Positions 8,590-64,000 of a DNA stretch of 64,000 nucleotides are shown here, in pieces. The notes under the pieces were generated by a model. That model did no database searches. It was given only the letters and a program-made list of their open reading frames with translations, and had not been told where the DNA came from. This DNA comes from Candidatus Latescibacterota bacterium (GTDB lineage Bacteria; Latescibacterota; UBA2968; GCA-2709665): contig OZ241917.1 of assembly GCA_965203805.1 (NCBI GenBank), positions 1,856,001 to 1,920,000 of the forward strand. Reading direction: 5' to 3'. The position numbers and the translations under genes are program-made. Position 1 is the first letter of the stretch; every line of letters begins with the position of its first letter.

Positions 8590-8590
8590 T

Positions 8591-9322: not shown

Positions 9323-9337
9323 CGACGCCTCCAGCGA

Positions 9338-48106: not shown

Positions 48107-48108
48107 CT

Positions 48109-51100
48109 TCAGTTCTTCTTCCTGACCAATACAGCGTAGATGATGGGTACGAAAACCAAGGTTCCCAGCGTTGCCAGAGAAATACCGCCCACGATAGCCC
48201 AGGCCAGAGGACGCCGCAGTTCCGCCCCGCTGCCGCTGGACAGGGCCATAGGCAGCAAACCGCATACCGTTGTCATCGTTGTCATACAGATGGGGCGAAA
48301 ACGCTTCCGCCCTGCGTCCAGAATCGCCAGCTGAAGGTCGCCGCTTGTCTGAACACGATGGTGGATGAAGTCCACCTTGACAATAGCGTCGTTCACAACG
48401 ATTCCCACCAGCACGATGCAGCCCAATAGGGACATCACGTTTAGTGTATTTCCCGTCAGCCAGAGGGTCGTCACAACCCCCGTGGATGCCAGTGGGACCG
48501 TCGTGATAATGACAAGCGGAACCATAAGTGATTCGAACTGGGCGGCAAGGATGAAATACACCAGTATTAGCGATATCGCAAGAATCGAGAGGATGTTCCG
48601 GTATTGCTCAAACATGTGCGCGTATTGGGAGCCGCTCTCAATCCAATATCCATTTGGGAGGCCGATCTTGTCCACTATCCGGGCAACCAAATCACGTGCC
48701 TGGTCTCGATGAATCTCATGTAATCCGGCCGTAATGGTGACGGTACGTGCTTGTTCCTGGCGATGGATCTCCTCAAAGTCTTCAGCGGGTTCGAGATGAA
48801 TCAGTTCAGAAAGAGGCACGTGAATGACACGGCCACGTTTACGTACGGGGTATTTGATGGTCAAGATGCGCTTCAGGTCAAGGTTGCCGCGGCCTTCCGC
48901 GAGCACCCGAATGTCGATCTGCTCGACAAAATCGACAAACCGGGTAGGAATACTACCGTCAAGATGCCGCTCGATAAAAAGGGAAAGTTTCTCGGGACGG
49001 ACACCGTATATGATAGCGGCGTCGCGGTCCACACGTACACTATAAGCCCGCCTTCCTTGCGTCAGATCGGATTGCACATTGACAAAGCTCGGTGACTGCC
49101 GCATGAATTCGCAGATTCGTCGACTCAATGCAGCCAGCGTATCCAAGTCAGAACCCACAATCTTGACGTCGAACTGTGCCTGCTGAACTTGAAACAAGTG
49201 TTCAAAGACTGATTCCGGCCGAGAGAGCGTGAGGGTCAGCCCTCCGAATTCAGTGAATGCGCCCTCGAGTCGACGCGCTACCTCCACTCCCGCGGCGTCT
49301 TTCGTCAGTTCTATATCTAGAAGTGCCTTATTCAGACCCGGCTGATACCTACCGTCCATAGCCTCCCGTGTGATTCCCACCGATGCCAGAACTGACTCAA
49401 CGCCACGCTCCGTTAAAACGCGTTTCTCCAGGCGGGTAACTTGCGCCGAAGTCGTCGTCAAACTCGCATCCTGCGGCAATTCGACCTGAACGATCAGACG
49501 TTTCCTGTCCACATCCGGCATCAGTTCCCTGTCCATCTTCAGCGCCATCCAACCGCTTACCGGAAGCGGAAAAACCGCTACGCAGATCACCTTCCATCGG
49601 TGGCGAAGTGCTATCGACAGGGCCCTTTCGTAAATTGCGAAAACACCGGCGACAATACGTTGAAAGAGTTCAATAGACCGCACGAACGGGATCAAGCCTA
49701 TGGATGCATATCGATATACAAGACGAAACCGGCCTCTGTTGACGCGCTCTGGCTTCCACTGCCGGGAAGCAAGCATCGGTAGCAGCGTAATCGACACTAA
49801 TAGGGAGGCTGCCAGCGCTAAGGAGATTGTTACGGCCTGCTCGAAGAAGAGCACTCCCGCCATTCCTTTGATGTACACCAGCGGCAAAAAAACCGACATT
49901 GTGGTAAACGTAGAGGCGGTAATCGCTAACCCGACTTCGTTGGTGCCTCTGACGGAAGCTTCTCGAGAATCGGCCTGAAGCTCCCGATGGCGAAAGATGT
50001 TTTCCAAAACCACGATAGAGTTGTCGACCAGTATCCCAATACCCAGAGCCAGTCCACCCAGCGAAATCACATTCAAATGAATATCTAGGAAGTACATACA
50101 GATGAAAGTCGCAATGATCGACACCGGAATGGAGAGACCGATGATGATTGGGTTTCTCAAGTCCCTGAGAAACAGCACAAGCGAAACAAAAGCGAAGAGT
50201 CCGCCGAGGTAAAGGGACTGCAGCACATTGTCTACGGATTCCCGTATGAACTCTGCCTGATCGAATAGCGGCTGCACCTCAAAATCAGGATAATCCCGAG
50301 AAAACCGGTAGAGATCGCCGTAGACTTTTTCCGACGTATCCACCGTGTTGGAACCCGCCTCCTTGAAGAGATGCAGGGTGATTACCTCGCTGCCGTTCAA
50401 ACGTGTATACCCTCTCCGGTCAGTGAAACCCTTCTCAATGCGGGCGACATCCTTGAGGCGAATCTGTTTGGGCTCATGTCGGACCGGAATACGCCCCATC
50501 TCGTCAATGCGGGTGAACTCCGCCTGAATTCGGAGGGGAAACCGTGAATACCCTTCACGGACCGCTCCACCAAAGCTAACCACATTGAATTGTTTCAGGC
50601 TACTTTCCACGTCCTCAAAGCTAACTCCATATCGCCTGCATTTTTCCGTGTCGAGGTAGACTCGAATCTCTCGCTCCTGGCCTCCTACGACCTGCACATA
50701 GGCAACACCGTCGATCTGTTCAAGGCGACGCTTGACAACGGACTCCGACACCTCCTTTAATTCCATCAGGGCTTCGTTGTAGTCCTGACGCGACCGAGGA
50801 CGTTCAATTCGCGACCCAGTAACGATTAACGTCATGATTGGGGCTGAGGCGGGATCAAAGCGCAATATAGTTGGACGTCCTGCGGCCTGCGGAAGCATTC
50901 CCTGGTCCAAGCTGCTTCGAACCTGAACGAATGCCAGATCCATGTCGCTTCCCCAGCGAAACGACACATCCACAAAGGAAAGGCCCTCACGGGAAACCGA
51001 ACGGATTCTGTGCACTTTGCTCACTGCGCTCAGAACGGCTTCGAGAGGGCGAGTGACGTATTCTTCCACGTCACGAGCGTTCATCGTGGGACACTCGGTT

Positions 51101-51243
51101 CGCACGATAAGTCTTGGTACATCGATATCGGGAAGGAAGTCCACACTCAGCCGGAAGAGTGAATAAACGCCAAGCAGAATAACGCCAAGAAAGCAAACAG
51201 TGGTGGCTACCGGCCGGTTGACCACAACGCGCACAATTCGCAT
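48109..51243 (-). CDS. RND efflux permease (AcrB/AcrD/AcrF family), subunit 1
   Basis: RPVAT, GILVDNSIVVLENI, GIVVNDAI and RFRPICMTTMTT. Confidence 0.93.
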   Translation of the reverse strand: MRIVRVVVNRPVATTVCFLGVILLGVYSLFRLSVDFLPDIDVPRLIVRTECPTMNARDVEEYVTRPLEAVLSAVSKVHRIRSVSREGLSFVDVSFRWGSDMDLAFVQVRSSLDQGMLPQAAGRPTILRFDPASAPIMTLIVTGSRIERPRSRQDYNEALMELKEVSESVVKRRLEQIDGVAYVQVVGGQEREIRVYLDTEKCRRYGVSFEDVESSLKQFNVVSFGGAVREGYSRFPLRIQAEFTRIDEMGRIPVRHEPKQIRLKDVARIEKGFTDRRGYTRLNGSEVITLHLFKEAGSNTVDTSEKVYGDLYRFSRDYPDFEVQPLFDQAEFIRESVDNVLQSLYLGGLFAFVSLVLFLRDLRNPIIIGLSIPVSIIATFICMYFLDIHLNVISLGGLALGIGILVDNSIVVLENIFRHRELQADSREASVRGTNEVGLAITASTFTTMSVFLPLVYIKGMAGVLFFEQAVTISLALAASLLVSITLLPMLASRQWKPERVNRGRFRLVYRYASIGLIPFVRSIELFQRIVAGVFAIYERALSIALRHRWKVICVAVFPLPVSGWMALKMDRELMPDVDRKRLIVQVELPQDASLTTTSAQVTRLEKRVLTERGVESVLASVGITREAMDGRYQPGLNKALLDIELTKDAAGVEVARRLEGAFTEFGGLTLTLSRPESVFEHLFQVQQAQFDVKIVGSDLDTLAALSRRICEFMRQSPSFVNVQSDLTQGRRAYSVRVDRDAAIIYGVRPEKLSLFIERHLDGSIPTRFVDFVEQIDIRVLAEGRGNLDLKRILTIKYPVRKRGRVIHVPLSELIHLEPAEDFEEIHRQEQARTVTITAGLHEIHRDQARDLVARIVDKIGLPNGYWIESGSQYAHMFEQYRNILSILAISLILVYFILAAQFESLMVPLVIITTVPLASTGVVTTLWLTGNTLNVMSLLGCIVLVGIVVNDAIVKVDFIHHRVQTSGDLQLAILDAGRKRFRPICMTTMTTVCGLLPMALSSGSGAELRRPLAWAIVGGISLATLGTLVFVPIIYAVLVRKKN

Positions 51244-51255
51244 AAGCGCCAAGCC

Positions 51256-52413
51256 TCAGCGTTGAACCACAATGACGCTGGCGTCGTGGGCGAGATTAAA
51301 ATGTCCCGATACGATCAATTCTTCGCCTTCTATGAGACCTTCTTCAATTTCGATTAATTCGTCGTTCTCCAACCCAGTTCTTACGTAACGCCATTTTGCC
51401 AAACCACCCTCATGTACGAAAATCAGCTTCCGGTCGTCACGGACAAGCAGAGCATCCCTGGGAACGAGTAGGCGCTTCCTGAACACACGGGTTTCAACAT
51501 CGACTTTGGCGAACATACCTGGCTTGATCCTGTGTTCGGGGTTGTCGATCCAGATTTGAATGTCACACATACCGCTTTCAGAGTCAACCACCGGGTTAAT
51601 CACTCGAATCGTTCCGCCGAACTTCTCGCCCGAAAAAGCGTGGAGACGTATTGATACGGGGGCGCCAACCCTCGCCAACGGCAACTCTCTCTCAAGGATA
51701 CCGACTTCAAGTGTCAGGGAATCGAGCCCTACCAGCCGCATTAAATCCTGGCCTTGCGCGACCGTACCGCCATTACCGATTTCCAGGTCGGTCACATACG
51801 CGTTGAAACGGGCTCTGATGACTGTATTGTCTACCTTTAGTTTCGCCTCTGCGACATCCAGTCTTGCCCGCGTAAGGCCCGTACTGCTGGCAAGCCACGC
51901 CTTGCGCGAGTTCTCCGACGCCAGCGCCAAGGCATCCATATCGTCAACATTGGCACTGTCGACCGTCTCTTCCATTTCCTTCTTTAAACGTCCGCCCCTG
52001 TCCAAGTGGTTTCCCACAAGGGCTAGGGCGGCATATTCACGCAATGCACGGGTCATCTGATCCTTCGCCTTCATATAAGCGATACGATAGGGTTCGCCGT
52101 CGATCTCAATTACAATGTCGCCCTCGCGGACAAAACTACCCTCCCCGACATGCAAACGATGTACCTGTCCGGAGACCCGGGCGACGACACGCGTCTCGAT
52201 ACGAGGCCTGAAAACTCCTTCCGAAGAGATTCTTCTCACGAGATCCCGTTTACGGACCGTCTCCACCACGACTGGCGTATTCGGAGACTCGAATTCGGGA
52301 AACGCGTCCAGTGCTTTGTCTCGCGAAGTCGCGGATGGATTGAGGGCATTCCAAACCACAAACCCCACGGTTCCAAGCCCAAACCCCAGCACAATATAAA
52401 ATAGACGTTTCAC
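51256..52413 (-). CDS. RND periplasmic adaptor (membrane fusion protein)
   Basis: N-terminal TM, VSGQV..LHVGEG..V..GD, IRARF, KPGMFA and V.TG motifs. Confidence 0.9.
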   Translation of the reverse strand: MKRLFYIVLGFGLGTVGFVVWNALNPSATSRDKALDAFPEFESPNTPVVVETVRKRDLVRRISSEGVFRPRIETRVVARVSGQVHRLHVGEGSFVREGDIVIEIDGEPYRIAYMKAKDQMTRALREYAALALVGNHLDRGGRLKKEMEETVDSANVDDMDALALASENSRKAWLASSTGLTRARLDVAEAKLKVDNTVIRARFNAYVTDLEIGNGGTVAQGQDLMRLVGLDSLTLEVGILERELPLARVGAPVSIRLHAFSGEKFGGTIRVINPVVDSESGMCDIQIWIDNPEHRIKPGMFAKVDVETRVFRKRLLVPRDALLVRDDRKLIFVHEGGLAKWRYVRTGLENDELIEIEEGLIEGEELIVSGHFNLAHDASVIVVQR

Positions 52414-52866
52414 TGTTTCGACACCCGTACGCGTCGCATAGCGGTTAACCTTTGCAGACAAAGAAGGACACGGTTTTCGTAGGTTCAATGTCAGTCAAAA
52501 ACCATTGATAGAGAGCCGCGAATGTGTCAAGTGGAGAGTTTCGCGACGACAATGTAACGGCGCATCGAACCTTTATTCGTCACTCTTCAGCAAACCAGAA
52601 TCGGACTCTTTCAGAAGTTTAAGTGCGAAATGAGAACCAAGAAGCCCGCAATCCCAAGTACACCTGCGATATCTAGTCCGAATTGAGAAATAACACTTCC
52701 GACGTATCGAAGAGTTGATGGCAATCCCCATCAGCCGTCTCTTTGACCAGATTCGCAGTATCAGAAAAAAGTCCCCGAATACTCCAATAGTCGAGCATTC
52801 GAAGACAACGGGATATTCAACAGGCGGATTTATGTGGTACTAATTCATTCTCCGGTCAGTCTTATA

Positions 52867-53874
52867 TCATTCCGACGGTTCCCAATGATTGCATATTAAC
52901 TCCAGGTCGTGCAATGCAGCCTCTTCGAGGTTTGCGATTTCCAAAAGACGTTTGTTAAGTTTTTCTAATGTCGGTATCAAGGCTCTTTTTTGGGCAATAT
53001 AACAGAGGTTTCGGAATACAAGCCATTTTTGGGAAATCGTCTTGAATTGCCTCGCCAACTGACACAAACGACGATCTCGCAACGAGACCGCCCCGAATTC
53101 CAGAAATTTCGCGTGACCCTCACGCTCGGGGATTACCATCTGAGTTTGTCGGAAAACCTGATCTAGTAGCTTACGTGCATTCTCCTGCTTGAGCCATTTC
53201 CAGTGTTCCAAGTCGTTAGCGAGTGATCGCAGACCCGTCAACCCGAAACAGGTACCAGGTACGTGGAAACTGTCGCCATGCATAAATTGGATATTCTTAT
53301 TAATCGATCGTATAGTCTCGTCGGACGTCAGGTTCCAACGGGGTTCCGAACATTTGATTTCCAGCCACGTAAATCTTGGGATTTCATTTGATCCCCAGGC
53401 TTCCGTCAATCCGGAGATCGGCAGACTTCCTCGGAACAACTTAGTTGGCGATGGATCTACAATATGTACCATGTCCATTTCGTCGTCGTACCCAGCAAGA
53501 ATAACGGCGTGAGATGAATGATGGCCTAGTCCCGGATAGTAGTAACGTTCTAGATAATACGTGTCGGCTACCGCCGGTACCGGAACGCCCTCATCTATTC
53601 GCGACTTAGCGCATTTCCAGGCAGTTTCACCATCTCGTTCGTGATGCACTGTTACATGAATACCACATTGTCTTAATCTCGTCTGAAAATGAGTGATACG
53701 TGGACTAATTTTCACTTCTGAACTGCCTTCCAGTTGGTATGAGAAATACCACTCGTCGTGCAATACGGTGGCAGTCGTGTACCCAAAAAACTGCAACATT
53801 ACATCTAATGCCACATAATCACAGGGATACGAATCGCAATCGCAGAAAGGAATTCCGGATATAAGTCGTCCCAT
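52867..53874 (-). CDS. BtrH-like protein (BtrH_N papain/C39-like fold; putative ACP-dependent acyltransferase)
   Basis: N-terminal Cys (YPCD), PV...D.YYL..Y...H..H...LAGYD, and a helical C-terminus (GL.GL..LA...ER..HA.FL...LE). Confidence 0.7.
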   Translation of the reverse strand: MGRLISGIPFCDCDSYPCDYVALDVMLQFFGYTTATVLHDEWYFSYQLEGSSEVKISPRITHFQTRLRQCGIHVTVHHERDGETAWKCAKSRIDEGVPVPAVADTYYLERYYYPGLGHHSSHAVILAGYDDEMDMVHIVDPSPTKLFRGSLPISGLTEAWGSNEIPRFTWLEIKCSEPRWNLTSDETIRSINKNIQFMHGDSFHVPGTCFGLTGLRSLANDLEHWKWLKQENARKLLDQVFRQTQMVIPEREGHAKFLEFGAVSLRDRRLCQLARQFKTISQKWLVFRNLCYIAQKRALIPTLEKLNKRLLEIANLEEAALHDLELICNHWEPSE

Positions 53875-54577
53875 GGCAATTCCTTAAGCTTGAAAAAAGT
53901 CGACATACGGCAGAGTCGGCGTATGCATTTATCGTCTTTTCAGTTTTACTATTGCGTAAACGACATTCTGCAATTCAGACGGCATGGCCGTTTCGTTAAG
54001 ATCGTCTATTGACGATACCGAATCACACAATCCGTAGAAACACTAAGACCATTCATCGGTGACCCACCCGAGTCTTGAATTAGGTAAAATCACCAGCCAT
54101 GGCGCTGACCACGCTGCAATTTCAAAAAAAAATCCTCAAGTTGATCATCCATTGAACTTTCGATTTATGGCGAACATTCGTGAGGCGATTTGTCACCTCC
54201 TGCTTTTTTCTTAAGCGAGATGTTCTCATTCTGCCGCCTCCACCGGCCGAGAAGACGAACCGCAGACACGATTAGTGAGTAATCACTCATTCTACATTTA
54301 TGACTCCAGCAAATCTGAAATCAAGGGGATGGTACGAACGCACACCGTCGCGATGGCAGAAATACGTCGTGGAAATCGCTCGGCGCTTCGGATATTTCGC
54401 GGCGAACAAAGTAGCCGTTTCGACCGAAACGGCGGGCGTCAGATAGGGCCTAAGCAGACGACACTATCTGTTTCGGTTGTCCCCGACCCGCGAAGCCCAT
54501 ATCTACCTATCCCGTTTTTTTCTTCGTTTTAAGAGTCTGGCAGTGCGACATCTACGCGACAGGGCTGGCGAGGCGGC

Positions 54578-54617
54578 CAGACAGGAATGTCCGCCCCACC
54601 TTCAGACCGGCATCCTC
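54578..54617 (+). repeat. 40-bp direct repeat, copy 1, downstream of the Kelch gene
   Basis: CAGACAGGAATGTCCGCCCCACCTTCAGACCGGCATCCTC; 37 of 40 positions match 55820-55859. Confidence 0.85.
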
Positions 54618-54646
54618 AGCATAACAGATCAGGTGCGCGGTTACTC

Positions 54647-55780
54647 TCAGGGTGTGAAAATGAAAATCTGATCCGTAGTCGACTCCCAATCTTGACTGTC
54701 ATCCCTCCACTTGATTCCGCCGGCGACCATCACGCGGCCGTCTTCAAGGAGCGTGGCCGTAGCGAAAGACCTGCGCGGGCTGATGCTGTATCCGGTATTG
54801 GAAAATGCGTGCGTTACGGGATCATACAGTACGATATCGCCGTTGTACGAGCGGATAAGAAGCACGTTGCCGGACGGCAGCAGCAGGGCGGCACTGGGAT
54901 CGATCGTTGAGACGCCGGCCGGTGAAAAGGTATTGGCTTCCGGGTCGTAGATCTCCGCCGTCTGCACGGATGGCCCTCTGCCGGCGCCGCCGCCTATGAT
55001 AAGGACCCTCCCGTCCTCCAGTAGCACCGCCTTATGATTCCTGCGGTCGAACTGCAAGTTGCCTGCTTCCGAAAGGGCTTCGGCCGAGGGATCATAGATA
55101 AGATTCCGTCCCAGCAATCCTGGGTCCCGTCCAACATTCTGTCCTCCAACGATCAACACCCTGCCGTCCTTCAACAGAGTGGCCGTATGGCCGATTCGGG
55201 AACGATCCATCCTGAGCAAGGGGGAGAATGGGCCTGTAGTCGGGTCGAAGACACCCGCGTATAACGTGCTGGTCAAGAAGACCTTTCCGTCGAGAAGCAG
55301 AGTGGCAGTAAGAATCCCAATTCTCCCAGGCAAAACTGCCACAGGGTTGAATCTGCCGGAATGAGCATCGTACCTCTCAATGGGGAGATTGGGATTTCCG
55401 GGGATGATCAGGACCCGGCCGTCGGGAAGCAATATGCCGTGGTCCTCGCTGCGACTGGCGGTCAGGTCTCCCGTTGGCGTTGAGGTCCCGGTTTCAGGGT
55501 CGAATATTTCCGCACTGATGAGACGCTTCGGCTGAGGAATGGGGGTATCCGGGGGAGGCGGCCCCGTGAGTACGACCGGCAGTTCTTCGAGGCCGCCAGC
55601 GATCAGGACCTTGCCATCGTTCAGTAACGTCGCGGCATGCCAATACCGGGGTCGGGTCAGGTTTCCAACCTCGTGAAGACCCCTTTCAAGGGCCGGCGGC
55701 TCTGATGTGGTTACCGAATCGCTTCCGCAAGCCCACAAGCTCGTGACGACAAACAGCGCAAACAGGATTCTGGTGGTCAT
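54647..55780 (-). CDS. Kelch/galactose-oxidase-type beta-propeller lipoprotein
   Basis: Lipobox LWA-C; repeated R..H.ATLL.DG.VLI.GG and AEI(F/Y)DP. Confidence 0.88.
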   Translation of the reverse strand: MTTRILFALFVVTSLWACGSDSVTTSEPPALERGLHEVGNLTRPRYWHAATLLNDGKVLIAGGLEELPVVLTGPPPPDTPIPQPKRLISAEIFDPETGTSTPTGDLTASRSEDHGILLPDGRVLIIPGNPNLPIERYDAHSGRFNPVAVLPGRIGILTATLLLDGKVFLTSTLYAGVFDPTTGPFSPLLRMDRSRIGHTATLLKDGRVLIVGGQNVGRDPGLLGRNLIYDPSAEALSEAGNLQFDRRNHKAVLLEDGRVLIIGGGAGRGPSVQTAEIYDPEANTFSPAGVSTIDPSAALLLPSGNVLLIRSYNGDIVLYDPVTHAFSNTGYSISPRRSFATATLLEDGRVMVAGGIKWRDDSQDWESTTDQIFIFTP

Positions 55781-55819
55781 TTTCTGTCTCCTTTCCGACC
55801 GAAGGATACACGATGTGGA

Positions 55820-55859
55820 CAGACAGGAATGTCCGCCCCACCTGCAGACCGGATTCCTC
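55820..55859 (+). repeat. 40-bp direct repeat, copy 2, upstream of the Kelch gene
   Basis: CAGACAGGAATGTCCGCCCCACCTGCAGACCGGATTCCTC. Confidence 0.85.
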
Positions 55860-56393
55860 TGCATGACGGTTCCGCGCAGGCGGCGGACATCCTGCTTCTC
55901 AGGTGTCGCCGCGTGTAAATAGCGCAGAGATGATCCCATGCTGCAGTAGATCCTTCGTCGGCCTGGGGACCCTTCGACGGGCTCGCTTCGACAGGCCACT
56001 TCGGCAAGCTCAGTGCAAGCAGCACAAGCAGGGCAAGTCCTCTGGATGACAGCCGGAAGCTTCGTGCTCGTGTAACCAGGTTGATCAAACCTTCCTAAAC
56101 ACCATCTCTTAAACGGATTTCGCCAATGTTGTTAAAAATGAGGTGCCGGTTTGTAATCCGGTGTCTTCGGACAAATGGGAAACGGTCGCCTGAGATGGTT
56201 TAATTAAACTGGGAGAAACTGTCACATGCCGCTGATCTTACGTTTGATCAAATCAAAAACGAACACGATTTACAGCGATTGGAAAAACAACTGATGACGA
56301 GACATCCTCCCAATATCATCTTCATGGTATGTGAAGATCAATAGGGTGCGATTGTCTAAAATCCAACATTTCCGCTAGATGACAAAGCCCAAT

Positions 56394-56657
56394 TTAGCTG
56401 CTCGCCAATTTACCGGACACATAACGAACCATAGAATTCACAGAATCGAAGAGGTCGACGCGTAATTCTTCGTCATCCACCTCAATTCCAAACTCCTGTT
56501 CAAGAGCAAAGATGATTTCTAGTGCGGCAATCGAGTCAACTCCCACGCCCTCGAAAAGCAACTCATCATCGGCAATGTCGTTAGGGTCAATACTCAGGCG
56601 GAGTGACTGGACGATCGCAGATTTTACACGCTGTCCAATGAGCGTCAATTCTTCCAT
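56394..56657 (-). CDS. Acyl carrier protein
   Basis: 87 aa, acidic; GVDSIAALE phosphopantetheine-Ser motif; LEQEFGIEV; overlaps the upstream stop. Confidence 0.9.
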   Translation of the reverse strand: MEELTLIGQRVKSAIVQSLRLSIDPNDIADDELLFEGVGVDSIAALEIIFALEQEFGIEVDDEELRVDLFDSVNSMVRYVSGKLASS

Positions 56658-58561
56658 CCGTTTTTCTTGTCCTCGGTAAAGTGATTGATTGCCACATCAA
56701 CCGCCTTTTGAATACCCTCTGCCGACGAAATACATATGGCGGGTAATCCAAAAGACCGTTCCAATTGTCCCAACTTACAGGCTACTTCGGCTTGAGTCAG
56801 CGGTCGCGGTCTTATCGACGTTCGACCATACCTAGCCTGCACTCCCTTTTCAAAGTCTGACGTGGCTAGCAACAATGTGGGCGCGTGACAAAATGCGCGA
56901 ATGCCGTTGACCGTGTCCTGAATATAGTCTTCGGGATCGACACTGTTTACCACCAATATGCAAGCATCAGGCTTCACACCCATTAAAAAAGCAATGGTGG
57001 GCAGCGTCAAAGTATGCTTGTCGCATACGTCATAGGGAACCGTTCCGGATTGGGTACCGACCAAAATGAGATGAGGTCGCGTTTGGTAGCAAATCTCGCG
57101 CATCTTCGCATCGAGAAACGGAATATAGTATTCAGTCGGAATTCGAACAGAGGGTGCGTAGCCCATTGGAAACCCATAATCCATGCCGAATAGCTCGGAA
57201 TGATGTTCAGTCCCAATCTGTGCAATCCGAAACCCTAGTTCTAGCAATCTTCGCCGGAACGCTAATTGAAGAGAAAATTTACCCTGTTGCGAACTCGTAC
57301 CTACTATAGCCAAAACCGGTACATCCACTTCGGGGATCGATGAGCATCCATCGATTGTACGGCTCGCCTCTTCAAACGACAGCTCAGGATAATACAGTCT
57401 CAATCCTTTAGAAGCAGCGACTTCATGCAAGTCACCGTACTCCGCGTGAGGTAGTGCAAGTAGGCTGAACACGTTTACTTCATTATCGAGTGCGACCTGA
57501 ACGCACTTTCTAAGGAAATCGCTCTTACGGATTCGACTCAATTCATCAACGTAACCAAGAATCAGAGTGTCTGCATGCTCCAGACACGCCGACAGCCGGG
57601 ATGTGATCCGGAGACCCTTATTACACAGGCCGATTGCTTCCCCTGCATCGCTGCCGACCAATCCCTTTCCGACAGGATCGGATATGCCCACGACCTGAAA
57701 GCCCAATAGGTCATTCGCACGAACTACGGCGTGCATTTCCTTATTATACGGGTAGAGGCAGGCCTTGCGTATCCACGAGAAGCGATCCTCTGCAGCAGAC
57801 GGGACCTTGATGGATGACGCAGGGTTTGTTACGAGAGGAGGCGCCGTTTCGGATACTGCGTGGTTACTCAGAATCTCACGGATCTGTTGCAAGCAGGCAC
57901 CAGGGTAAGCCTGCCGGATTAGCGCGATCAGACCGGTTATATGTGGCGCAGCGAAACTGGTACCGCCCATCATTATTTCCTTCGGCTCCAACCAACACAC
58001 CCGTTGGGGGTCGCCGCGCGCAATGCACTCAATCGGTCGACCGGCGCGATAATAGTAGTCGTACGGGCCAAGCAACGCACCCGAACCGACACCAATGACG
58101 TCGGCTAACAACGCAGGATACGAGTCACGTCCCTCGTTATTTGCGGATGCTACCAAAAGAGTACCAACGCTGACTGCATTGCGACAGACGTTTGCCAACT
58201 CGTCACGATAAGCGATATCCGTTGTTCCCAAGCTTAGATTTACAATGTCGATTCCGTGCGCAACTGTCCATTCGATGGCCGCTATGAGCAGTCGTGGTTC
58301 CGTCGACAAGGATTCGTCAAAAACTCGGATACTATAAATTGAGGCGTCCATCGCTTTCCGCCGGATAATACCTGCACAGGCCGTTCCGTGACCCACGCAG
58401 TCTTCAAAATCAGAACCATAGATTAAATCCCCTGCTTTACCGACTGATATAGAAACCCCGCCTGTCAACGGACCAACCTTCGGGTGGTCCGGCACGATGC
58501 CACTATCTATAACTGCGACGGCAACGCCGCGTCCGGTCAAGTTTGAAAACGGAAAACTCAT
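56645..58561 (-). CDS. S8 (subtilisin) peptidase fused to a DUF1611-like P-loop domain
   Basis: Triad VAVIDSG / HGTACAG / GTSFAAPH, no signal peptide; C-terminal half has GTSSQQGKFS, GTE and VGTQSG. Confidence 0.8.
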   Translation of the reverse strand: MSFPFSNLTGRGVAVAVIDSGIVPDHPKVGPLTGGVSISVGKAGDLIYGSDFEDCVGHGTACAGIIRRKAMDASIYSIRVFDESLSTEPRLLIAAIEWTVAHGIDIVNLSLGTTDIAYRDELANVCRNAVSVGTLLVASANNEGRDSYPALLADVIGVGSGALLGPYDYYYRAGRPIECIARGDPQRVCWLEPKEIMMGGTSFAAPHITGLIALIRQAYPGACLQQIREILSNHAVSETAPPLVTNPASSIKVPSAAEDRFSWIRKACLYPYNKEMHAVVRANDLLGFQVVGISDPVGKGLVGSDAGEAIGLCNKGLRITSRLSACLEHADTLILGYVDELSRIRKSDFLRKCVQVALDNEVNVFSLLALPHAEYGDLHEVAASKGLRLYYPELSFEEASRTIDGCSSIPEVDVPVLAIVGTSSQQGKFSLQLAFRRRLLELGFRIAQIGTEHHSELFGMDYGFPMGYAPSVRIPTEYYIPFLDAKMREICYQTRPHLILVGTQSGTVPYDVCDKHTLTLPTIAFLMGVKPDACILVVNSVDPEDYIQDTVNGIRAFCHAPTLLLATSDFEKGVQARYGRTSIRPRPLTQAEVACKLGQLERSFGLPAICISSAEGIQKAVDVAINHFTEDKKNGWKN

Positions 58562-58672
58562 CGCACCTGTTCACGAAAAAGCTAAAGGAGGACGGCGATA
58601 TTCTCACGAATATCGCATTGCCAGGAAATCGGTTAGAGTTGTTTCCCCCAACTTCTCCTAAAAGCAGAAATA

Positions 58673-59164
58673 CTAACCTCCGTCATCGGTCTCGGTTGCC
58701 ACCGGAAATCCCGCCTCGGCCCACAACGGCCATCCACCGGAAAGCACCCTGACGTTTGCATATGTGAATTCTCGTGCGAGGCGCCGCGCTACATCATAGC
58801 TACTCATACATGTAGCATTTGCACAGTAGACGATAATATCGGTATCCGCCGGATAAGGCTCAAGCACACGATGCAATTCGGAAGTCGAATAGTGATATGA
58901 CAGACGGACAGCACCCGGAATATGCCCACCATTAAATGCCTCAGCCGAGCGAGCATCTACAAATAACGCTGCTCCCCTGTCATATTGGTGCTTAGCTTCA
59001 ACTAAATCCAATGTCCCAATAGCCTGTTCTTCTAAAGTGCCGACATTTGCAAGAGGAAGTCCAGCCACCGTCCGCCGGGCATAAAACCACTCGGTCAATT
59101 GAAGGACGGCACAATACATCACAATTAATATGAATACCAGTGAAACTATAACCCATCGCCACAC
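58673..59164 (-). CDS. Membrane-anchored rhodanese-like protein
   Basis: N-terminal TM; FVDARS..F..GHIPGA; YCANATC; LSGGW..W..AGFP. Confidence 0.85.
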   Translation of the reverse strand: MWRWVIVSLVFILIVMYCAVLQLTEWFYARRTVAGLPLANVGTLEEQAIGTLDLVEAKHQYDRGAALFVDARSAEAFNGGHIPGAVRLSYHYSTSELHRVLEPYPADTDIIVYCANATCMSSYDVARRLAREFTYANVRVLSGGWPLWAEAGFPVATETDDGG

Positions 59165-59195
59165 GAATTCGTATCCAATTCGGGACTCTTATTAA

Positions 59196-59385
59196 CCTTG
59201 ATTCGAAAGTCCCCGGGGACGTTAATTCGAATATGTGCTTTAAATAAAGGCGATTAGACGGCGGAAACCGAGGATACACCAGGTCACTGGACGTGAAGGG
59301 AAAAAACATCTTTCTTTATGTCGACAACGCCCCGTTTCGGAGGGTTTTATCGCGTCGCCGCGTTGCTGTTTTTTTCGGATTGAGG
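59196..59385. mobile_element. 190-bp MITE with IS1380-type ends, copy A
   Basis: TTAA|CCTTGATTCGAAA ... TTTTCGGATTGAGG|TTAA; aligns end to end with 63205-63397. Confidence 0.8.
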
Positions 59386-61068
59386 TTAATTGCGTGCCGT
59401 TGAAAAAAAACTGTTTAAGAAACTTTGTTTCTGGAGCAACGCCTGAGGTTGACCCTGTTCAACTACGGTGCCGTTATCAATGCAGATCACTTCATCCACA
59501 TTTCGGACGACGTTTAGTCTATGACTGATAACTAGGATTGTCTTTCCAGCAAATATCCGTCGGACATTTCGAAGAATCGTGTGTTCATTTTGGGGATCCA
59601 AAGCTGCGGTCGCTTCGTCCATGATTAGCAACTCCGCAGGATTCAACAGGGCTCTAGCAATTGCAAGCCGTTGTCGTTGCCCACCCGACATCTGTACTCC
59701 TTGCTCTCCTATAGTTTCATGTTGATTCAGATCGTTCAGACCAACCATCTCCATGACGCGGTCGATTTCTGATGAGTTATACCGAGCCGATCCGTACCGG
59801 ATATTCTCGCCGACGCTATCGTGAAATAGGTGGACTCGTTGGCTAACCAAACTGATATTTCGCCTCAAGTCCGACAGTTCGAATTCTCGCATTTGAACAT
59901 TGTCAATGTTGATGCAACCTCGATCGGGAAGATGAAGCCCACAAAGCAAATTGGCAATCGTCGACTTTCCACTTCCACTCGCACCTACCAAAGCATACGA
60001 TTTCCCTTTTGCCATACTAAATTTCACTCCTCGAAGTACTGTCTGACTCTCAAAACTAAAATAAACATCTTGAAGGTCAATCTGCCTCCCGAAGGTAAAC
60101 TGTTTTCGTCCAGCAAAAAAACCAACCTCCGAGGGAATCTGCATAAACTCCAACACGCGACGCATGGAAACCAACCCTCGAACGAGCCCAATGTACATAT
60201 CGTGCAGGTTCCGGACTGGCTGGAAAAGACGTACCGAGTACTGTAGGAAGGCAACTAGAGCGCCAAGCGACATGACGTCTTGCATAACCTGATACGCTCC
60301 GAATCCCATAATGAAGAGGGGGGTTAACGCGGCCAACCCTCCTGACACACTATTCATTGAGGCATAGTACAGGACATTGCGCATGATTAATTCAATTAGA
60401 TCATCCGACATAAAACGAAATCTATCGGTTTCTCGCCTCGAACTATTCGTAAGTTTAATTAATGAGACGTTTTTAAATCGTTCAATTACGTAGCTGGAAA
60501 TGTCGGACCCCTTTTTCTGAATCTTTTCGATATTCCGTCTAATCCTAGGCTGAAAATAGGTCAGATTTAATACAAACAACGGGACGCCGATTACAGTCAG
60601 CAAAAAAAGGGAGGCATTTAGCCACATCAGCAATACGATCAGCCCAATCAAAGTCAGGACACTGTGGATCGAGTGCAACGCGCTGGAAGTCAGCATCGAC
60701 TCAATCACTGCCACATCACTATTGAGCCGGTAGACCAAATCTCCTGTCTTTCGATTGTCAAGTGAGCTTATCGGTAAATCCAACAACTTACGAAACATCC
60801 GCACTCGCATATCCCGAACAATGCGATTACTGCACCACGCGTAGAGGTAGTTTGATGCGAAAGACAAGATCATATTAGTTAACATCAAACCGCAGAGAAG
60901 TCCGATCGCGACTAGAAGAGTGGTATATTGTTTGGCTGGAATTATGTCATCGATAATCGTCTTCGTAATGTACGGTGGAGCTAAGGAAACCGCAGTGGTA
61001 AGGACAAGACAGATCACAACGATTAATCCCTTAAAGCGGTAGGGATTCAGGAATTTGGCAAATCGCAC
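59386..61068 (-). CDS. ABC exporter, fused permease and ATPase (no C39 domain)
   Basis: 6-TM domain, GASGSGKST, MSGGQRQR, MDEATAALD and ISHR. Confidence 0.93.
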   Translation of the reverse strand: MRFAKFLNPYRFKGLIVVICLVLTTAVSLAPPYITKTIIDDIIPAKQYTTLLVAIGLLCGLMLTNMILSFASNYLYAWCSNRIVRDMRVRMFRKLLDLPISSLDNRKTGDLVYRLNSDVAVIESMLTSSALHSIHSVLTLIGLIVLLMWLNASLFLLTVIGVPLFVLNLTYFQPRIRRNIEKIQKKGSDISSYVIERFKNVSLIKLTNSSRRETDRFRFMSDDLIELIMRNVLYYASMNSVSGGLAALTPLFIMGFGAYQVMQDVMSLGALVAFLQYSVRLFQPVRNLHDMYIGLVRGLVSMRRVLEFMQIPSEVGFFAGRKQFTFGRQIDLQDVYFSFESQTVLRGVKFSMAKGKSYALVGASGSGKSTIANLLCGLHLPDRGCINIDNVQMREFELSDLRRNISLVSQRVHLFHDSVGENIRYGSARYNSSEIDRVMEMVGLNDLNQHETIGEQGVQMSGGQRQRLAIARALLNPAELLIMDEATAALDPQNEHTILRNVRRIFAGKTILVISHRLNVVRNVDEVICIDNGTVVEQGQPQALLQKQSFLNSFFSTARN

Positions 61069-61107
61069 AATTGCGTTTATTGATGAGATGTGTGGCTCCG
61101 CGGAAAA

Positions 61108-61800
61108 CTAAAAGGGATCACTGAGGACACCGCGCCCCTTGATAAACTCCAATAGAGACATACCGTGCATTTCTTTCAAGGGTGAATCAGCGAAACCCTC
61201 AACATTAATCTCAAAAGCAGGCATATGATTGTAAACAAGATCAACGAAGAACAAGGATGTGAATTGCTCCGCTTGGATTAGAGGAAGGTGGCATCGAATT
61301 ATCCTGTTTTCTGGACTGACAAGAAAAACCACAGGAGTTCGCACGAACAACCCATCGGAATCCTCTGGTTCTAGCGGAACACCTAACTGAAACGTCAACC
61401 TGAAGGCTCGCTTAAATTTAGTCAATTCTGATTGATCCCCATTTGAAATGGCGTAAATCGGCATCTCTAAGGAGTCCTTTAGGTTGTCGTGGATGTGTTG
61501 CAGCGCCCGTAATATTAGATTGATGCAAGGTTGGCACGAATTCGGCGAAAACAAAAACACCAAGCCGGTCTTTGATCCTGAAAAGTCAGTACTTACCGTA
61601 TCATTGCCAGTCGTGCGAATTGACAATTTTGGAAATCCGCGACCGACTATCAGATCCTGCCGGTAGGTATTGACCACAAACGTGCGGTAAAACCGTAGAT
61701 CGGTGAGATGTAATCTGAATAACCAGGCGAGGGAGACGACTAGACCAATTAGGAAAAGCAGATTCGATACTACCAATAATCTCGTTATCCGCATAGTCAT
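61108..61800 (-). CDS. Membrane-anchored thioredoxin-fold (redoxin-like) protein
   Basis: N-terminal TM; FLFSPNSCQPC (CxxC); TP.VFLV cis-Pro motif. Confidence 0.7.
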   Translation of the reverse strand: MTMRITRLLVVSNLLFLIGLVVSLAWLFRLHLTDLRFYRTFVVNTYRQDLIVGRGFPKLSIRTTGNDTVSTDFSGSKTGLVFLFSPNSCQPCINLILRALQHIHDNLKDSLEMPIYAISNGDQSELTKFKRAFRLTFQLGVPLEPEDSDGLFVRTPVVFLVSPENRIIRCHLPLIQAEQFTSLFFVDLVYNHMPAFEINVEGFADSPLKEMHGMSLLEFIKGRGVLSDPF

Positions 61801-62239
61801 ACCGAAACTTTACAACAACCGTCGTTGCAGTCCATAGAGGTTATTGTAGTTTCTCGAATGAATTCTGTACGGTTCAAAACCACCGAATCCCCCGGGTAGG
61901 GTATTTGTCGCACTCCATATTTTACATCCTTATAATCTTATAAATTCGGCAATATCCAGCTTCTCGGAATCCAATCAAATGGACTGCCACAACGCGCGGA
62001 CTGTCTATTGAATTCCAAAAAAAATAGAAGCACTTTCCATTCCAGTAAGGCCTCCATTGAACTCCTGATTCTGGTCTTCGCACCTTCGGAAGATGTGGAG
62101 CTAAACCCACTATCAGCAGGGAATCTGCACTGAATTGCTCCCCAATCAAATACGACGAACGCGTCTAATACCACTGAATGCATCAGCCCCATTTGCAAAG
62201 AATCCTTGGAACCCGCGCCAGAATACGGATCCGATCCGC

Positions 62240-62590
62240 CAACTGAACGCACTGCGACAGGTCCGCTTTCAAGCCAACCGACGTCTACTGGACGTCCAAA
62301 GCATCAGCCACGACTGGACCGTCGGCGAAGATGCCTTCCAAAAGCTCTAACAGCCGCAACAAATCGACGGCCAACGGGTATGTGCCCTACGCTTCGGCGG
62401 CCGTCGCACACAGATGCTCTTGCGGGCACTGGTCATCTTCCGAACGCAGGCGCGCATCCTAAGATCCGGACTCACCCTCGACAAGACCACGCCAAACCAC
62501 CTACGCAGCGCATTCGACAGACTCGAAACTTTGATCGACCAACATTGCGATCATGCCAAACTCGCTGCTTGAAGCTTGACTCAAACACCA
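62240..62590 (+). pseudogene. Degenerate transposase-like fragment
   Basis: Frame reads LRQVRFQANRRLLDVQSISHD...GEDAF..*..DGQRV.ALRFG...AFDRL...KLAA* with an internal stop; resembles a widespread mobile-element protein C-terminus (from memory). Confidence 0.5.
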
Positions 62591-62659
62591 CAAAAACCGC
62601 CGACTAAGCAGGCTAGGGCTGCAGAAAGAATGCGCCAACCCAAGCTATTGCCACTGGCT

Positions 62660-62800
62660 CTCTGTGCTCTTTGCGCTGGATGAAGCCTTCCCCAAACACG
62701 ACATCAACCCCGCTGGCCGCGTAAGATCGAAGCGATTTCCCAGCCGCACACTGGCGACAACCAATCCCATAGAATCCACGTTCACCACCGCAGCAGAGGG
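62660..62800 (+). pseudogene. IS256-family transposase fragment
   Basis: DFPAAHWR and TNPIESTF in adjacent frames, the same motifs as in the IS256 at 43 kb. Confidence 0.6.
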
Positions 62801-62912
62801 ATTCTTCGATCCAATAAACAGCACCAATATCATACGTTTAACGTAATTACCGAAGTTAACGAAAGACCGAAATACGGATCCGATCCACCATTTCAGTCAA
62901 CGAGAGTAATAC

Positions 62913-63134
62913 CTAAATGTTATACCATTCCGACCAATAGGTATCTCCCGAATTACAAAGGGCAACTTCGATCTCATTCGAGGCATTGCAAGAATAGTGG
63001 TCTCTCCGCTGCAACTGACCATTGTGGCACCTTTTTTCGAACCCGTCATTGAACCATTGATATCCATCGTACCATTCGTACGCGTATATCAATGTATCCT
63101 GTCGACGGTTCCGTGGTTTTCGTAGCAAGTTCAT
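62913..63134 (-). CDS. 73-aa putative RiPP precursor peptide
   Basis: Strong RBS AAGGGAGG before ATG 63134; basic leader-like MNLLRKPRNRRQDTLIYAY, then a Trp/Tyr/Asn/Cys-rich core. Confidence 0.7.
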   Translation of the reverse strand: MNLLRKPRNRRQDTLIYAYEWYDGYQWFNDGFEKRCHNGQLQRRDHYSCNASNEIEVALCNSGDTYWSEWYNI

Positions 63135-63204
63135 GTTGCCTCCCTTCTGAGAGTTTGAGAATTGGTGGATCGGAATCCGTAGTTTCGGCAAATCGCAAAG
63201 CAAA

Positions 63205-63397
63205 CCTTGATTCCTCATTTTTCGAGGACGTTTATTTGAATTTGTGTCAGTCAGTTAAAAAGGCGATTAGACTGCTGATTACCAGGATACAACAGGACAC
63301 TGTACGTGAACGGAAGAAATGTCCTTCCTTAAGACCATTTCGGCACCATTCGGAGAGTTCCGTCGCGTCGCCGCGTTGCGATTTTATCGGATCGAGG
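63205..63397. mobile_element. 193-bp MITE with IS1380-type ends, copy B
   Basis: CAAA|CCTTGATTC ... TATCGGATCGAGG|CTAA; shares AAAGGCGATTAGAC, GGATACA, ACGTGAA and TCGCGTCGCCGCGTTGC with copy A. Confidence 0.8.
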
Positions 63398-63447
63398 CTA
63401 ATGAATGAGATAGATGCATCGATCGGATAAATCGACACGATTTACAG

Positions 63448-64000
63448 CTAGTTATTTGCACCAAAGTCAAGCGCATAGACCGCCACATTGCCATTGGAAT
63501 TTTCCGACTCTGCTGCCGACGGCTCACTCCATACATACAACTGATCCCGCGAAGATGCTATACTATTCCACGGGAGCGATATAACTTCGGATTCGAGGTG
63601 CTCCTTTGCTGACCTACTAAAGTCATAGACTCTGACGGCCTCTTCTGTGTCGAGGTCGTAAATCGACCAGTTGGTAATACTTGCGACGGTCGTGTCCTCG
63701 GTCGTGCCAGGGTTTATGTGCGAAACTATCAAAAAACGACCATGGACGATTGTCATGCTACGTACAGTTGTCATTTTCAATCCTCTCATATCTTCACGAC
63801 TCCCTTGTTCAATTCCATGATACCTTGTCGGCAACGGTACATATCCTTTCGGACGACGACCAAATCGCCTGATGGTTTTCCCAGTCTCGGCGTCGATTTC
63901 TCTAACCATGTAGTCGTTTGGTCCCAGGAAATACAGCCTATTCCGTACCACGCTGTAGCATAGATGCGCAAAGGCTTTCATGCGATATGAGATAAACCTC
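63448..64000 (-). CDS. Probable beta-propeller protein (5' end outside the window)
   Basis: Frame is open to the window edge; short beta-strand blades (RLYF...Y.VREID..TG..IRRFG, WSIYDLD, QLYV). Confidence 0.55.
   Translation of the reverse strand, partial: RFISYRMKAFAHLCYSVVRNRLYFLGPNDYMVREIDAETGKTIRRFGRRPKGYVPLPTRYHGIEQGSREDMRGLKMTTVRSMTIVHGRFLIVSHINPGTTEDTTVASITNWSIYDLDTEEAVRVYDFSRSAKEHLESEVISLPWNSIASSRDQLYVWSEPSAAESENSNGNVAVYALDFGANN

Follow-up and report, generated by a model that had tools for sequence, protein, structure and literature searches.

A protease-DgcN-like fusion, an acyl carrier protein and a BtrH-like protein in a conserved Latescibacterota gene cluster with a possible role in ribosomal peptide maturation

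The subject of this analysis is a gene cluster on the minus strand of a 64,000-nucleotide stretch of DNA from an uncultured Candidatus Latescibacterota bacterium (G000:C1:1856001-1920000, within a 5.87-Mb single-contig genome), which we refer to as the window. The cluster occupies positions 52867-64000 and belongs to a large family of loci whose core consists of a fusion of an S8 protease with a DgcN-like domain, an acyl carrier protein (ACP), a BtrH-like Cys-His transferase, an ATP-binding cassette (ABC) exporter and peptide precursors whose leader ends in V/I/L-x-A-Y. We tentatively read it as a maturation and export locus for a ribosomally synthesized and post-translationally modified peptide (RiPP). 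In order of transcription, it encodes a propeller, a 73-amino-acid (aa) open reading frame (ORF), a redoxin, the ABC exporter, a rhodanese, the fusion protein, the ACP, a Kelch-repeat protein and the BtrH-like protein, after which come a hairpin, a membrane fusion protein and two resistance-nodulation-division (RND) pumps. The genes on which the argument turns are these:

63448-64000, minus strand: 3' part (C-terminal 183 aa) of the gene for a secreted, NHL-type six-bladed propeller; the whole gene (407 aa) runs to window-equivalent position 64671
62913-63134, minus strand: 73-aa precursor-like ORF between the propeller and redoxin genes
61108-61800, minus strand: membrane-anchored thioredoxin-fold CxxC protein (redoxin) with the motif SCQPC; AhpC-TSA match of 23.3 bits, below the cutoff of 26
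59386-61068, minus strand: ABC exporter with transmembrane and ATPase domains, 560 aa; ABC_membrane match from residue 16
58673-59164, minus strand: rhodanese with an N-terminal membrane anchor, kept in 15 loci
56645-58561, minus strand: cytoplasmic fusion of an S8 (QhpE-like) domain with a DUF1611/DgcN-like Rossmann/P-loop (TIGR04066-like) domain, 638 aa
56394-56657, minus strand: ACP, 87 aa; PP-binding match at E 8e-12
52867-53874, minus strand: BtrH-like papain-fold protein (BtrH_N + DUF4872), 335 aa, no signal peptide

An earlier note on this DNA had described these genes as a candidate AT-rich cluster for an ACP-dependent lipidated RiPP, and Pfam and NCBIfam searches located every gene it listed on the minus strand; its inventory had overlooked only a 450-aa Kelch-repeat ORF between the ACP and BtrH-like genes. 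The AT-rich composition is evident from a G+C content of 0.45-0.49 across 56-64 kb, which covers most of the cluster, compared with 0.57-0.66 over 0-38 kb and 0.59 for the genome. Also as proposed, the cluster has no nonribosomal peptide synthetase (NRPS) or polyketide synthase (PKS) module. Among the protein models that the note had named for a search, BtrH_N, DUF1611, PP-binding and Peptidase_S8 matched and TIGR04066 did so below its cutoff, but TIGR04069 and TIGR04065 gave no match.

The fusion protein joins two domains, both of them recognizable. Its N-terminal part matches Peptidase_S8 at E 8e-28 (residues 10-235), the best NCBIfam model for this domain being QhpE (143.1 bits, below the cutoff of 165). 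Its C-terminal part matches DUF1611 (PF07755) at E 2.9e-9 (residues 410-612; 37.1 bits against a cutoff of 25) and TIGR04066 at E 3.8e-30 (residues 266-558), the latter with 105.1 bits, below the cutoff of 200; judged by this match, the fused domain is clearly homologous to TIGR04066 and lies outside the curated family. Across 53 fusion sequences, the S8 triad (D19/H58/S202) and the P-loop GTSSQQGKF are at least 80-95% conserved, and a YPYNKEMH stretch is invariant; the S8 protease of the locus thus has an intact active site, as would be expected of a RiPP leader peptidase. A single-sequence search of the PDB with the DgcN-like half returned nothing useful, but a domain profile found 2g0t at E 2.9e-6, and a structure model of residues 255-638, with a mean predicted local distance difference test (pLDDT) score of 87.3, gave the DUF1611 structures 2g0t and 2obn, together with 7xrj (DgcN), as its top Foldseek matches (E 1e-10 to 2e-14, template modelling (TM) score 0.53-0.72). 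DgcN, itself a DUF1611 protein, has the two-domain Rossmann and P-loop fold in common with the fused domain (Foldseek E 6e-14 for 7xrj), including the conserved P-loop. The two are, however, only 15-17% identical, and DgcN is a free-standing enzyme of D-glutamate catabolism, whereas the domain at this locus forms one protein with a protease and is coupled to an ACP. DgcN is called an N-acetyltransferase in the title of PDB entry 7xrj, and we use that label on the strength of the title, since the one paper found to mention the DgcN-DgcA pathway gives no mechanism. A complex prediction for the DgcN-like half with the ACP scored 0.02 (mark 0.32) and is counted for neither side.

The ACP gene is tightly coupled to the fusion gene, its start overlapping the fusion gene's stop by 13 nt. 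It encodes a carrier with a phosphopantetheine attachment site, the serine of which is invariant in 42 of 42 family ACPs and in 29 of 29 in a second set. The coupling recurs elsewhere: in 41 of the 55 cases with enough flanking sequence, the ACP start lies between -60 and +650 bp from the end of the fusion gene, and an ACP is found somewhere in the locus in 48 of 55. These counts come from tblastn, as our ORF clustering yielded numbers for the ACP and BtrH-like genes that were too low, its overlap filter having preferred antisense ORFs. In a distant variant with 38% identity (L066, G088:C1:699000-706000, and L067), the order is ACP, fusion, redoxin, with the ACP gene upstream. Many matches of the phylum-wide search contain in-frame TGA or TAG codons, for which we considered selenocysteine or read-through; in L066, the one flagged copy that was translated, the TGA is the gene's natural stop and the search alignment simply extends beyond it, and the idea was dropped.

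The BtrH-like protein has the architecture of its namesake, with BtrH_N at 46.8 bits (cutoff 29.7) and DUF4872 at 37.8 bits (cutoff 28), and C18, H119 and H122 are invariant in 14 BtrH-like sequences, consistent with a Cys/His active site. A single-sequence search of the PDB found nothing useful for it. The NCBIfam model for DarH, a BtrH-related acyltransferase, matches weakly (E 5.7e-8); one study reportedly names DarH together with BtrH. Downstream of the fusion gene, a BtrH-like gene is found no more than 4.5 kb away in 30 of 53 cases, 11 of them from the window's family and 19 from a divergent family of 344 aa without a Pfam match. The divergent family aligns collinearly with BtrH in hhalign (E 4e-4, probability 34%), and its protein language-model neighbours carry BtrH_N (score 0.98), observations which make its kinship with BtrH a lead suggested by sequence comparison. 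BtrH itself is described in partial text of PMC2922099 as a papain-fold transacylase that takes an acyl group off an ACP, and in partial text of PMC10318531 as an ACP:aminoglycoside acyltransferase close to the C39 and C70 peptidase families.

To place the window in a wider setting, one genome per species was scanned for relatives of the fusion protein. This yielded 61 loci, 54 of which are titled Latescibacter*; the other seven come from Palauibacter and Gemmatimonas (both Gemmatimonadota), Bacteroidetes, Kryptoniota, Erysipelotrichaceae, Clostridia and one further bacterium. We clustered 3915 ORFs of at least 70 aa from these loci and the window's own region, leaving out of all counts a near-identical genome (L003) that has the same arrangement with 93-100% protein identity and a key gene 99% identical. 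Within the phylum, the DgcN-like half is present in 87 of 168 genomes (E<=1e-20; up to 7 matches per genome) and in 25 of the 52 high-quality ones, and 5 of the 14 other genomes of the window's genus match it, a patchy distribution which indicates that the system is accessory. In the closest group of loci, with 61-62% identity of the fusion protein, the gene order is propeller, peptide, redoxin, ABC exporter, rhodanese, fusion, ACP, a 210-aa protein, BtrH-like protein, membrane fusion protein and two RND pumps. The arrangement exceeds chance, as the same gene set recurs in other genomes. The earlier note would have been refuted by a lack of co-occurrence or by a small ORF that is not conserved; instead, the fusion gene, the ACP gene, a BtrH-like gene and short same-strand ORFs with an ..AY leader occur together across Latescibacterota, which favours its reading.

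The 73-aa ORF, preceded by GGGAGG 4 nt ahead of its ATG, has a leader of about 19 aa ending in LIYAY(E), followed by a core with Trp, Tyr and acidic residues and three Cys, the third of which lies in a C-x-x-G-D motif common to related peptides. Eleven orthologous peptides of 62-77 aa occupy the same gap between the propeller and redoxin genes; they share the leader M-x-x-L-x-K-K-x-x-x-R-R-x-x-x-hydrophobic-x-A-Y, while the cores vary, have 3-5 Cys and abound in Trp, Asp and Glu, and a Trp some 6-8 residues past the AY is visible in most of these peptides. A leader profile run for one iteration against 22565 six-frame segments gave 40 matches at E<0.01, all of them co-oriented with the fusion gene and none antisense to it; they correspond to 34 distinct ORFs in 23 loci. 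The combination of a conserved leader and a variable core, a hallmark of RiPP precursors, is therefore present in the family and less strongly supported for the window's own ORF. The claim that the small ORF is conserved thus stands for a recurring, leader-bearing peptide family, but the 73-aa ORF of the window fits the family profile weakly. Variation between strains provides a second view of this ORF. Contigs containing this stretch come from 6 DNA sequencing runs of 3 studies, with no RNA run among those listed. In contigs of 3 further runs the ORF is open and has 6 changed positions, all 6 of them non-synonymous, in five codons at or beyond codon 31; its leader is unchanged, and 3 changes fall in the 693 nt of the redoxin gene. 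Such a pattern agrees with a core that diversifies behind a conserved leader, although six changes are few.

Precursors are longer (125-165 aa) in other groups of loci, where the V/I-x-A-Y-S/E-G/E-E junction is again present and genes for CPBP protease, TPR, GNAT and HlyD proteins accompany them. At a firmicute locus, a 39-aa Lys-rich ORF with a Cys-rich tail lies just upstream of the fusion gene. In one class of long precursors (L049:8784-9194, L021 from 14213 and L033 from 19915), the leader junction is repeated at the C-terminus as ..P-x-V-Q-A/L-Y-G-E followed by a stop. The S8 protease may, on the evidence of this repeat, cut both ends of such precursors. A C-terminal AYDG(E) is the signal of cyanobactin macrocyclases, and by analogy a head-to-tail cyclisation of these precursors is conceivable.

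The remaining genes of the cluster are consistent with export and thiol chemistry. Since ABC_membrane starts at residue 16, the exporter lacks an N-terminal (C39) peptidase domain, and an ABC-family gene lies within 10 kb of the fusion gene in 43 of 49 cases. The redoxin is kept in 14 loci, and MauE-family genes in related loci support a thiol-chemistry step. In propeller-bearing loci, all 17 leader-bearing ORFs lie within 977 bp of the propeller gene and 16 of them within 700 bp; counted from the other side, a precursor lies no more than 700 bp away for 18 of 29 propeller genes. Pairs of a short, Cys-rich precursor and a six-bladed propeller, sometimes in tandem, occur at L046:3751-6993, L052:1222-7119, L035, L038 and L039. 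Adjacent peptide and propeller genes hint at cognate pairs, with the propeller in an immunity or receptor role.

Several further features lie within or beside the cluster:

54647-55999, minus strand: Kelch-repeat lipoprotein-like ORF, 450 aa, with Kelch Pfam matches; G+C content 0.56
52771-52806, minus strand: terminator-like hairpin of 14 pairs plus a T run, 60 nt past the BtrH-like stop
51256-52488, minus strand: membrane fusion protein
48109-51252 and 44738-48265, minus strand: two RND pumps
37829-38434, minus strand: displaced AziU2-like gene, 201 aa, 15 kb from the cluster and near transposase genes

We judge the Kelch gene to be an insertion and no member of the cluster, because it is absent at other loci except that of the near-identical L003, has paralogs in the genome (9 tblastn matches, the best 88.7% identical), has a higher G+C content and is flanked by a dispersed repeat. 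Copies of this 57-nt repeat, 86% alike, bracket the ORF at about 54569-54625 and 55811-55867, and the repeat is found at more than 20 places in the genome, several of them next to Kelch paralogs at about C1:3.999-4.004 Mb; the Kelch genes look like a cassette-like expanding family. The position between the ACP and BtrH-like genes is occupied in 12 orthologous loci by an AziU2-like protein of 210 aa, of which tblastn detects no remnant at that place in the window (every match E>0.3). A model of this family (pLDDT 72.4) matches 7wuw and 8gs1 (AziU3/U2) in Foldseek at E 5e-14, with TM 0.77 and 31% identity, and its profile matches AziU2 at E 5e-21. AziU3/U2 of azinomycin biosynthesis is thus a homolog of the 201-aa family of the orthologous loci, but it is a heterodimer rather than the product of a single gene, no sulfotransferase is seen here, and the gene is displaced in the window. 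The AziU3/U2 heterodimer is said to form an aziridine through sulfate elimination. The genome has a second AziU2-like gene at C1:3.786 Mb (L065:6242-6871), about 1.4-1.5 kb from a second BtrH-like gene (8240-9382); an ORF with AMP-binding_C and PP-binding domains precedes this AziU2-like gene by about 5.5 kb. AziU2-like and BtrH-like genes may form a portable module.

Transposases at 38749-40128 and 42920-43821 (a DDE gene and two Mutator-family fragments) lie near the orphan AziU2-like gene, and their position between it and the RND genes suggests that the downstream end of the cluster has been rearranged. In the closest group of loci, the membrane fusion protein and the two RND pumps come directly after the BtrH-like gene; in this genome, the hairpin suggests that the RND genes form a separate transcript.

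Beyond the window, the contig continues with a gene for a radical S-adenosylmethionine (rSAM)/SPASM protein and one for a 1628-aa activator with Ser/Thr-kinase, AAA, TPR, GAF and sigma-54 activator parts. An rSAM/SPASM gene had been sought in this extension by the earlier note, along with an acyl-AMP ligase or phosphopantetheinyl transferase (PPTase); the first is there, but it belongs to a different module, and neither of the other two was found. The rSAM protein matches SCIFF, nif11, PapB and QhpD maturases at E 1e-67 to 1e-73, all below cutoff (SCIFF 247.5 bits against 425, PapB 238.7 against 340, QhpD 228.2 against 453 at E 1.6e-67, and TIGR04068 151.2 against 500). The activator and rSAM genes (window-equivalent 66590-72139, L001:7590-13139) have a second copy with about 59% identity at G000:C1:3882879-3889806 (L064:879-7806), where glycosyltransferase-type genes follow and no S8-DUF1611 gene is present. 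In both copies, an ORF of about 70 aa (72 aa near the window) with an AGGAGG site lies between the regulator and rSAM genes; the two ORFs are 35% identical (E 1e-14) and share the motif ..V-C-x-W-P-x-F-x-x-L-P-P-P... In each copy a sigma-54-like -24/-12 element precedes the small ORF at an aligned position, which is suggestive, although a promoter scan gave 11 matches against 7.8 expected (L001) and 9 against 7.9 (L064), not above chance. The rSAM gene is thus part of a separate regulator-peptide-rSAM module. The idea that it completes the cluster was rejected in view of its own upstream peptide, the duplication of the module and the rarity of rSAM genes near fusion genes (2 of 49 within 10 kb).

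Taken together, the loci form a real, conserved and phylum-wide cluster family, in which a carrier-protein-dependent tailoring step is plausible. We favour reading the window's cluster as a RiPP-type maturation and export locus in which an ACP-borne group is moved onto the peptide, at a probability of roughly 45%. Its basis, read directly from the genomes, comprises gene content, synteny, co-occurrence, catalytic residues and folds; the cleavage site, the transfer from ACP to peptide, the identity of the group and the order of steps are what we infer from it. In this scheme, the S8 domain would first cut the 73-aa precursor in the cytoplasm after the Tyr of its leader. The cut is placed after the Tyr because the hydrophobic-x-A-Y sequence puts a hydrophobic residue at P4, Ala at P2 and Tyr at P1, in keeping with the S4, S2 and S1 subsite preferences of subtilases. 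The DgcN-like domain, the ACP and the BtrH-like enzyme would then shift the ACP-borne group, which may be an acyl group, an aminoacyl group or a small built-up unit, to the peptide, the simplest target being the amine freed by removal of the leader. Either the DgcN-like domain might load the ACP from acyl-coenzyme A (acyl-CoA) and the BtrH-like enzyme unload it, or the DgcN-like domain might itself be the transferase. The ABC exporter would deliver the peptide to the periplasm, where the membrane-anchored redoxin and rhodanese would handle its three Cys and the paired NHL propeller would bind or process it, and the RND pump would finally pass it outward. That these proteins serve one pathway and one substrate is suggested by the fusion of the protease to a domain whose one named relative would be an N-acyltransferase with a pantetheine-bearing donor, the translational coupling of the ACP and the nearby BtrH-type gene; the roles in export, thiol chemistry and efflux are assigned from protein families and predicted locations.

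A number of observations weigh against this reading. Pfam and NCBIfam searches of the cluster's ORFs and of the contig extension found neither a PPTase nor an enzyme that would load the ACP (acyl-AMP ligase, fatty acid synthase (FAS), PKS or ATP-grasp). The window's ACP matches generic ACP models at E 1e-11 to 1e-12 without reaching any of their cutoffs, and its 19 NCBIfam matches at E<=0.01 do not include TIGR04069. BtrH_N is close kin of the C39 leader peptidases, and the BtrH-like protein could be a protease. On the side of the peptide, a leader match was obtained for only 23 of the 44 loci that measure 19 kb or more. When the full-length profile is built with the window's ORF left out, that ORF scores 14.1 bits at E 0.056 and ranks, among the 22565 segments, behind the 11 training rows and one further segment; by profile, the window's peptide joins the family weakly, at borderline significance. 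Leader-only profiles miss it altogether (1.8-3.3 bits with the all-group profile), and the leader profile of the closest group gives its twin in L003 5.8 bits at E 15. Finally, with the AziU2-like gene moved, the Kelch gene inserted and transposases nearby, the locus may be rearranged or partly disabled. The 'lipo' part of the earlier proposal has no support, as the locus contains no gene for fatty-acyl activation, FAS or PKS; acylation of the peptide, and above all lipidation, is something we infer from the gene families.

Comparison with known systems places the cluster among relatives without assigning it to any of them. The closest is the CLI_3235 type (TIGR04065-04069), whose small Cys-rich precursor likewise has for neighbours an S8 protease, an ABC exporter, a protein of the TIGR04066 type and a small carrier-like protein. 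The link to this type proposed for the window is upheld by the TIGR04066 match of the fused domain and by a published example, SacP23 of Paenibacillus polymyxa, for which the partial text of PMC10731318 places TIGR04068, TIGR04066, TIGR04069 and an S8 protease next to each other. For the TIGR04066 and ACP-like parts, the same partial text (2023) offers 'immunity' as a guess. The window differs in having its S8 and TIGR04066-like domains in one polypeptide, and nearly all Latescibacterota loci lack the rSAM; beyond the CLI_3235 set, they have BtrH-like and AziU2-like proteins, thiol-redox helpers, NHL propellers and RND pumps. TIGR04065, TIGR04066, TIGR04068 and TIGR04069 each fall below cutoff or give no match in the window (for TIGR04065, no NCBIfam match at E<=1 for the window's peptide or five related precursor ORFs), and since every CLI_3235 cutoff failed, the window is not filed as a member. 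It is, clearly, a relative of CLI_3235 with a different architecture and different partners.

The BtrI/BtrH pair of butirosin biosynthesis likewise sets a free-standing ACP beside a BtrH_N + DUF4872 papain-fold protein with conserved Cys and His. The butirosin ACP cargo is made by an ATP-grasp ligase and tailoring enzymes. These cargo builders have no counterpart here, and the acceptor in butirosin is an aminoglycoside, whereas a ribosomal peptide is presumed here. Goadvionins, lipolanthines and selidamides are lipidated RiPPs made with an ACP-bound acyl donor and a GNAT. What they have in common with the favoured reading is the idea of an acyl group on a ribosomal peptide, together with the GNAT family seen in related loci; the window, however, has no FAS or PKS genes, and its candidate transferases are of the BtrH and DgcN types rather than GNAT. 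Searches of full-text literature outside subscription journals and supplements turned up neither a report of a ribosomal peptide that depends on DUF1611 or BtrH nor a characterisation of the system.

Of the alternatives, the one that survives best, though we consider it unlikely, is that a disulfide-rich peptide is exported with no transfer from ACP to peptide, the BtrH-like protein being a second, C39-type protease and the ACP and DgcN-like parts a scaffold or a means of ACP-free N-acetylation from acetyl-CoA. The BtrH-like protein does match Peptidase_C39_2 (E 6e-6), in line with the position of BtrH_N near the C39 and C70 families (partial text of PMC10318531). The ABC exporter has no C39 domain of its own, and the second, C-terminal V-Q-A/L-Y-G-E site in the L049, L021 and L033 precursors implies that two cuts may be needed; the lack of an ACP-loading enzyme in the locus points the same way. 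What this account struggles to explain, without a carrier role, is the invariant Ser in 42 of 42 ACPs and the coupling of the ACP to the fusion gene, and BtrH_N plus DUF4872, both above cutoff, is the architecture of an acyltransferase.

A rather more doubtful alternative makes the peptide a cross-linked small subunit or ligand of the paired periplasmic propeller, matured in the manner of the methylamine dehydrogenase light subunit or the gamma subunit of quinohemoprotein amine dehydrogenase (QHNDH). In these Qhp and Mau pathways, a QhpE-like protease cuts the leader in the cytoplasm, a QhpF-like ABC protein carries out export and MauD/MauE-like proteins help with thiols. The route to the QHNDH gamma subunit indeed resembles the locus in its propeptide-less, cytoplasmic S8 protease of the QhpE type, its ABC exporter for a cut, Cys-rich peptide, the QhpD-like rSAM nearby and the periplasmic propeller. 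Accordingly, the S8 domain scores best against QhpE, the neighbouring rSAM matches QhpD, related loci have a MauE-family gene, peptide and propeller genes are tightly and sometimes tandemly paired (17 of 17 leader ORFs within 977 bp), and a Trp follows the AY at a similar distance in most of the 11 closest peptides. Yet both QhpE and QhpD fall below cutoff, and heme- or quinone-forming partners are missing, with no match to QhpA, QhpB or a QhpG-like protein among the cluster ORFs. The peptide cores are hypervariable among loci and strains, unlike cofactor-bearing subunits, many loci, those of the long-precursor class, have no propeller at all, and neither the Qhp nor the Mau system is known to use an ACP or BtrH-like protein such as those present here.

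We regard it as improbable that the 73-aa peptide is a ranthipeptide or SCIFF-like substrate of the nearby rSAM/SPASM protein, with thioether formation as the main chemistry. The rSAM gene does lie two genes upstream on the same strand with the SCIFF, nif11, PapB and QhpD matches given above, Firmicute and Bacteroidota relatives of the fusion (L054, L060, L063) adjoin an rSAM gene, and the core has three Cys and many Asp and Glu. All the rSAM family scores are nevertheless below cutoff, only 2 of 49 fusion genes have an rSAM within 10 kb, and the module has its own conserved 72-aa upstream ORF with a ribosome-binding site and a preceding sigma-54-like element and is duplicated where there is no S8-DUF1611 gene. 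Least probable is that the locus in this genome is a decaying remnant without a product, for although the AziU2-like gene lies 15 kb off beside transposases, the Kelch insertion is flanked by repeats, the gap around the peptide gene measures 1650 bp against about 450 bp in orthologs and the system is patchy in the genus (5 of 14 genomes), the cluster ORFs are all full length with their catalytic residues intact, the arrangement is kept in L003 at 93-100% protein identity, and contigs of runs from 3 studies show no indels in 61000-64000, peptide gene included.

If the favoured reading, transfer of an ACP-borne group onto a ribosomal peptide, is correct, the pairing of a protease-DgcN fusion with an ACP and a BtrH-type transferase would constitute a new enzyme logic for RiPPs. 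TIGR04066 and TIGR04069, predicted over a decade ago, would thereby gain a first function. A broader proposal is that carrier-tethered tailoring of ribosomal peptides by proteins of the protease-DgcN fusion, ACP and BtrH types operates in Latescibacterota and in scattered Gemmatimonadota, Bacteroidota and Firmicutes, with the AziU2-like enzyme perhaps shaping the unit, possibly into a strained or reactive ring, and that this would be a route to hybrid ribosomal and carrier-protein natural products that requires no NRPS, PKS or GNAT; this we advance speculatively, thinking it somewhat unlikely in this full form. With 87 of 168 genomes of the phylum holding it, the system is widespread there and may supply a sizeable share of the peptide chemistry. 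The pairing of each hypervariable, Cys-framework core with a propeller gene of its own also suggests a toxin/immunity or ligand/receptor system that is diversifying. The isolate names of several loci suggest sponge or marine samples.

The spacer between the peptide and redoxin genes (61801-62912) is about 1.1 kb long and contains no convincing ORF, just short matches elsewhere in the genome; it contributes to the long propeller-redoxin gap, which measures 1173 bp in L003. Two short segments that flank the peptide gene, 62273-62316 and 63259-63327, are matched by many unrelated short contigs, with a summed depth of up to about 250 compared with about 9 nearby, and behave like dispersed short repeats.

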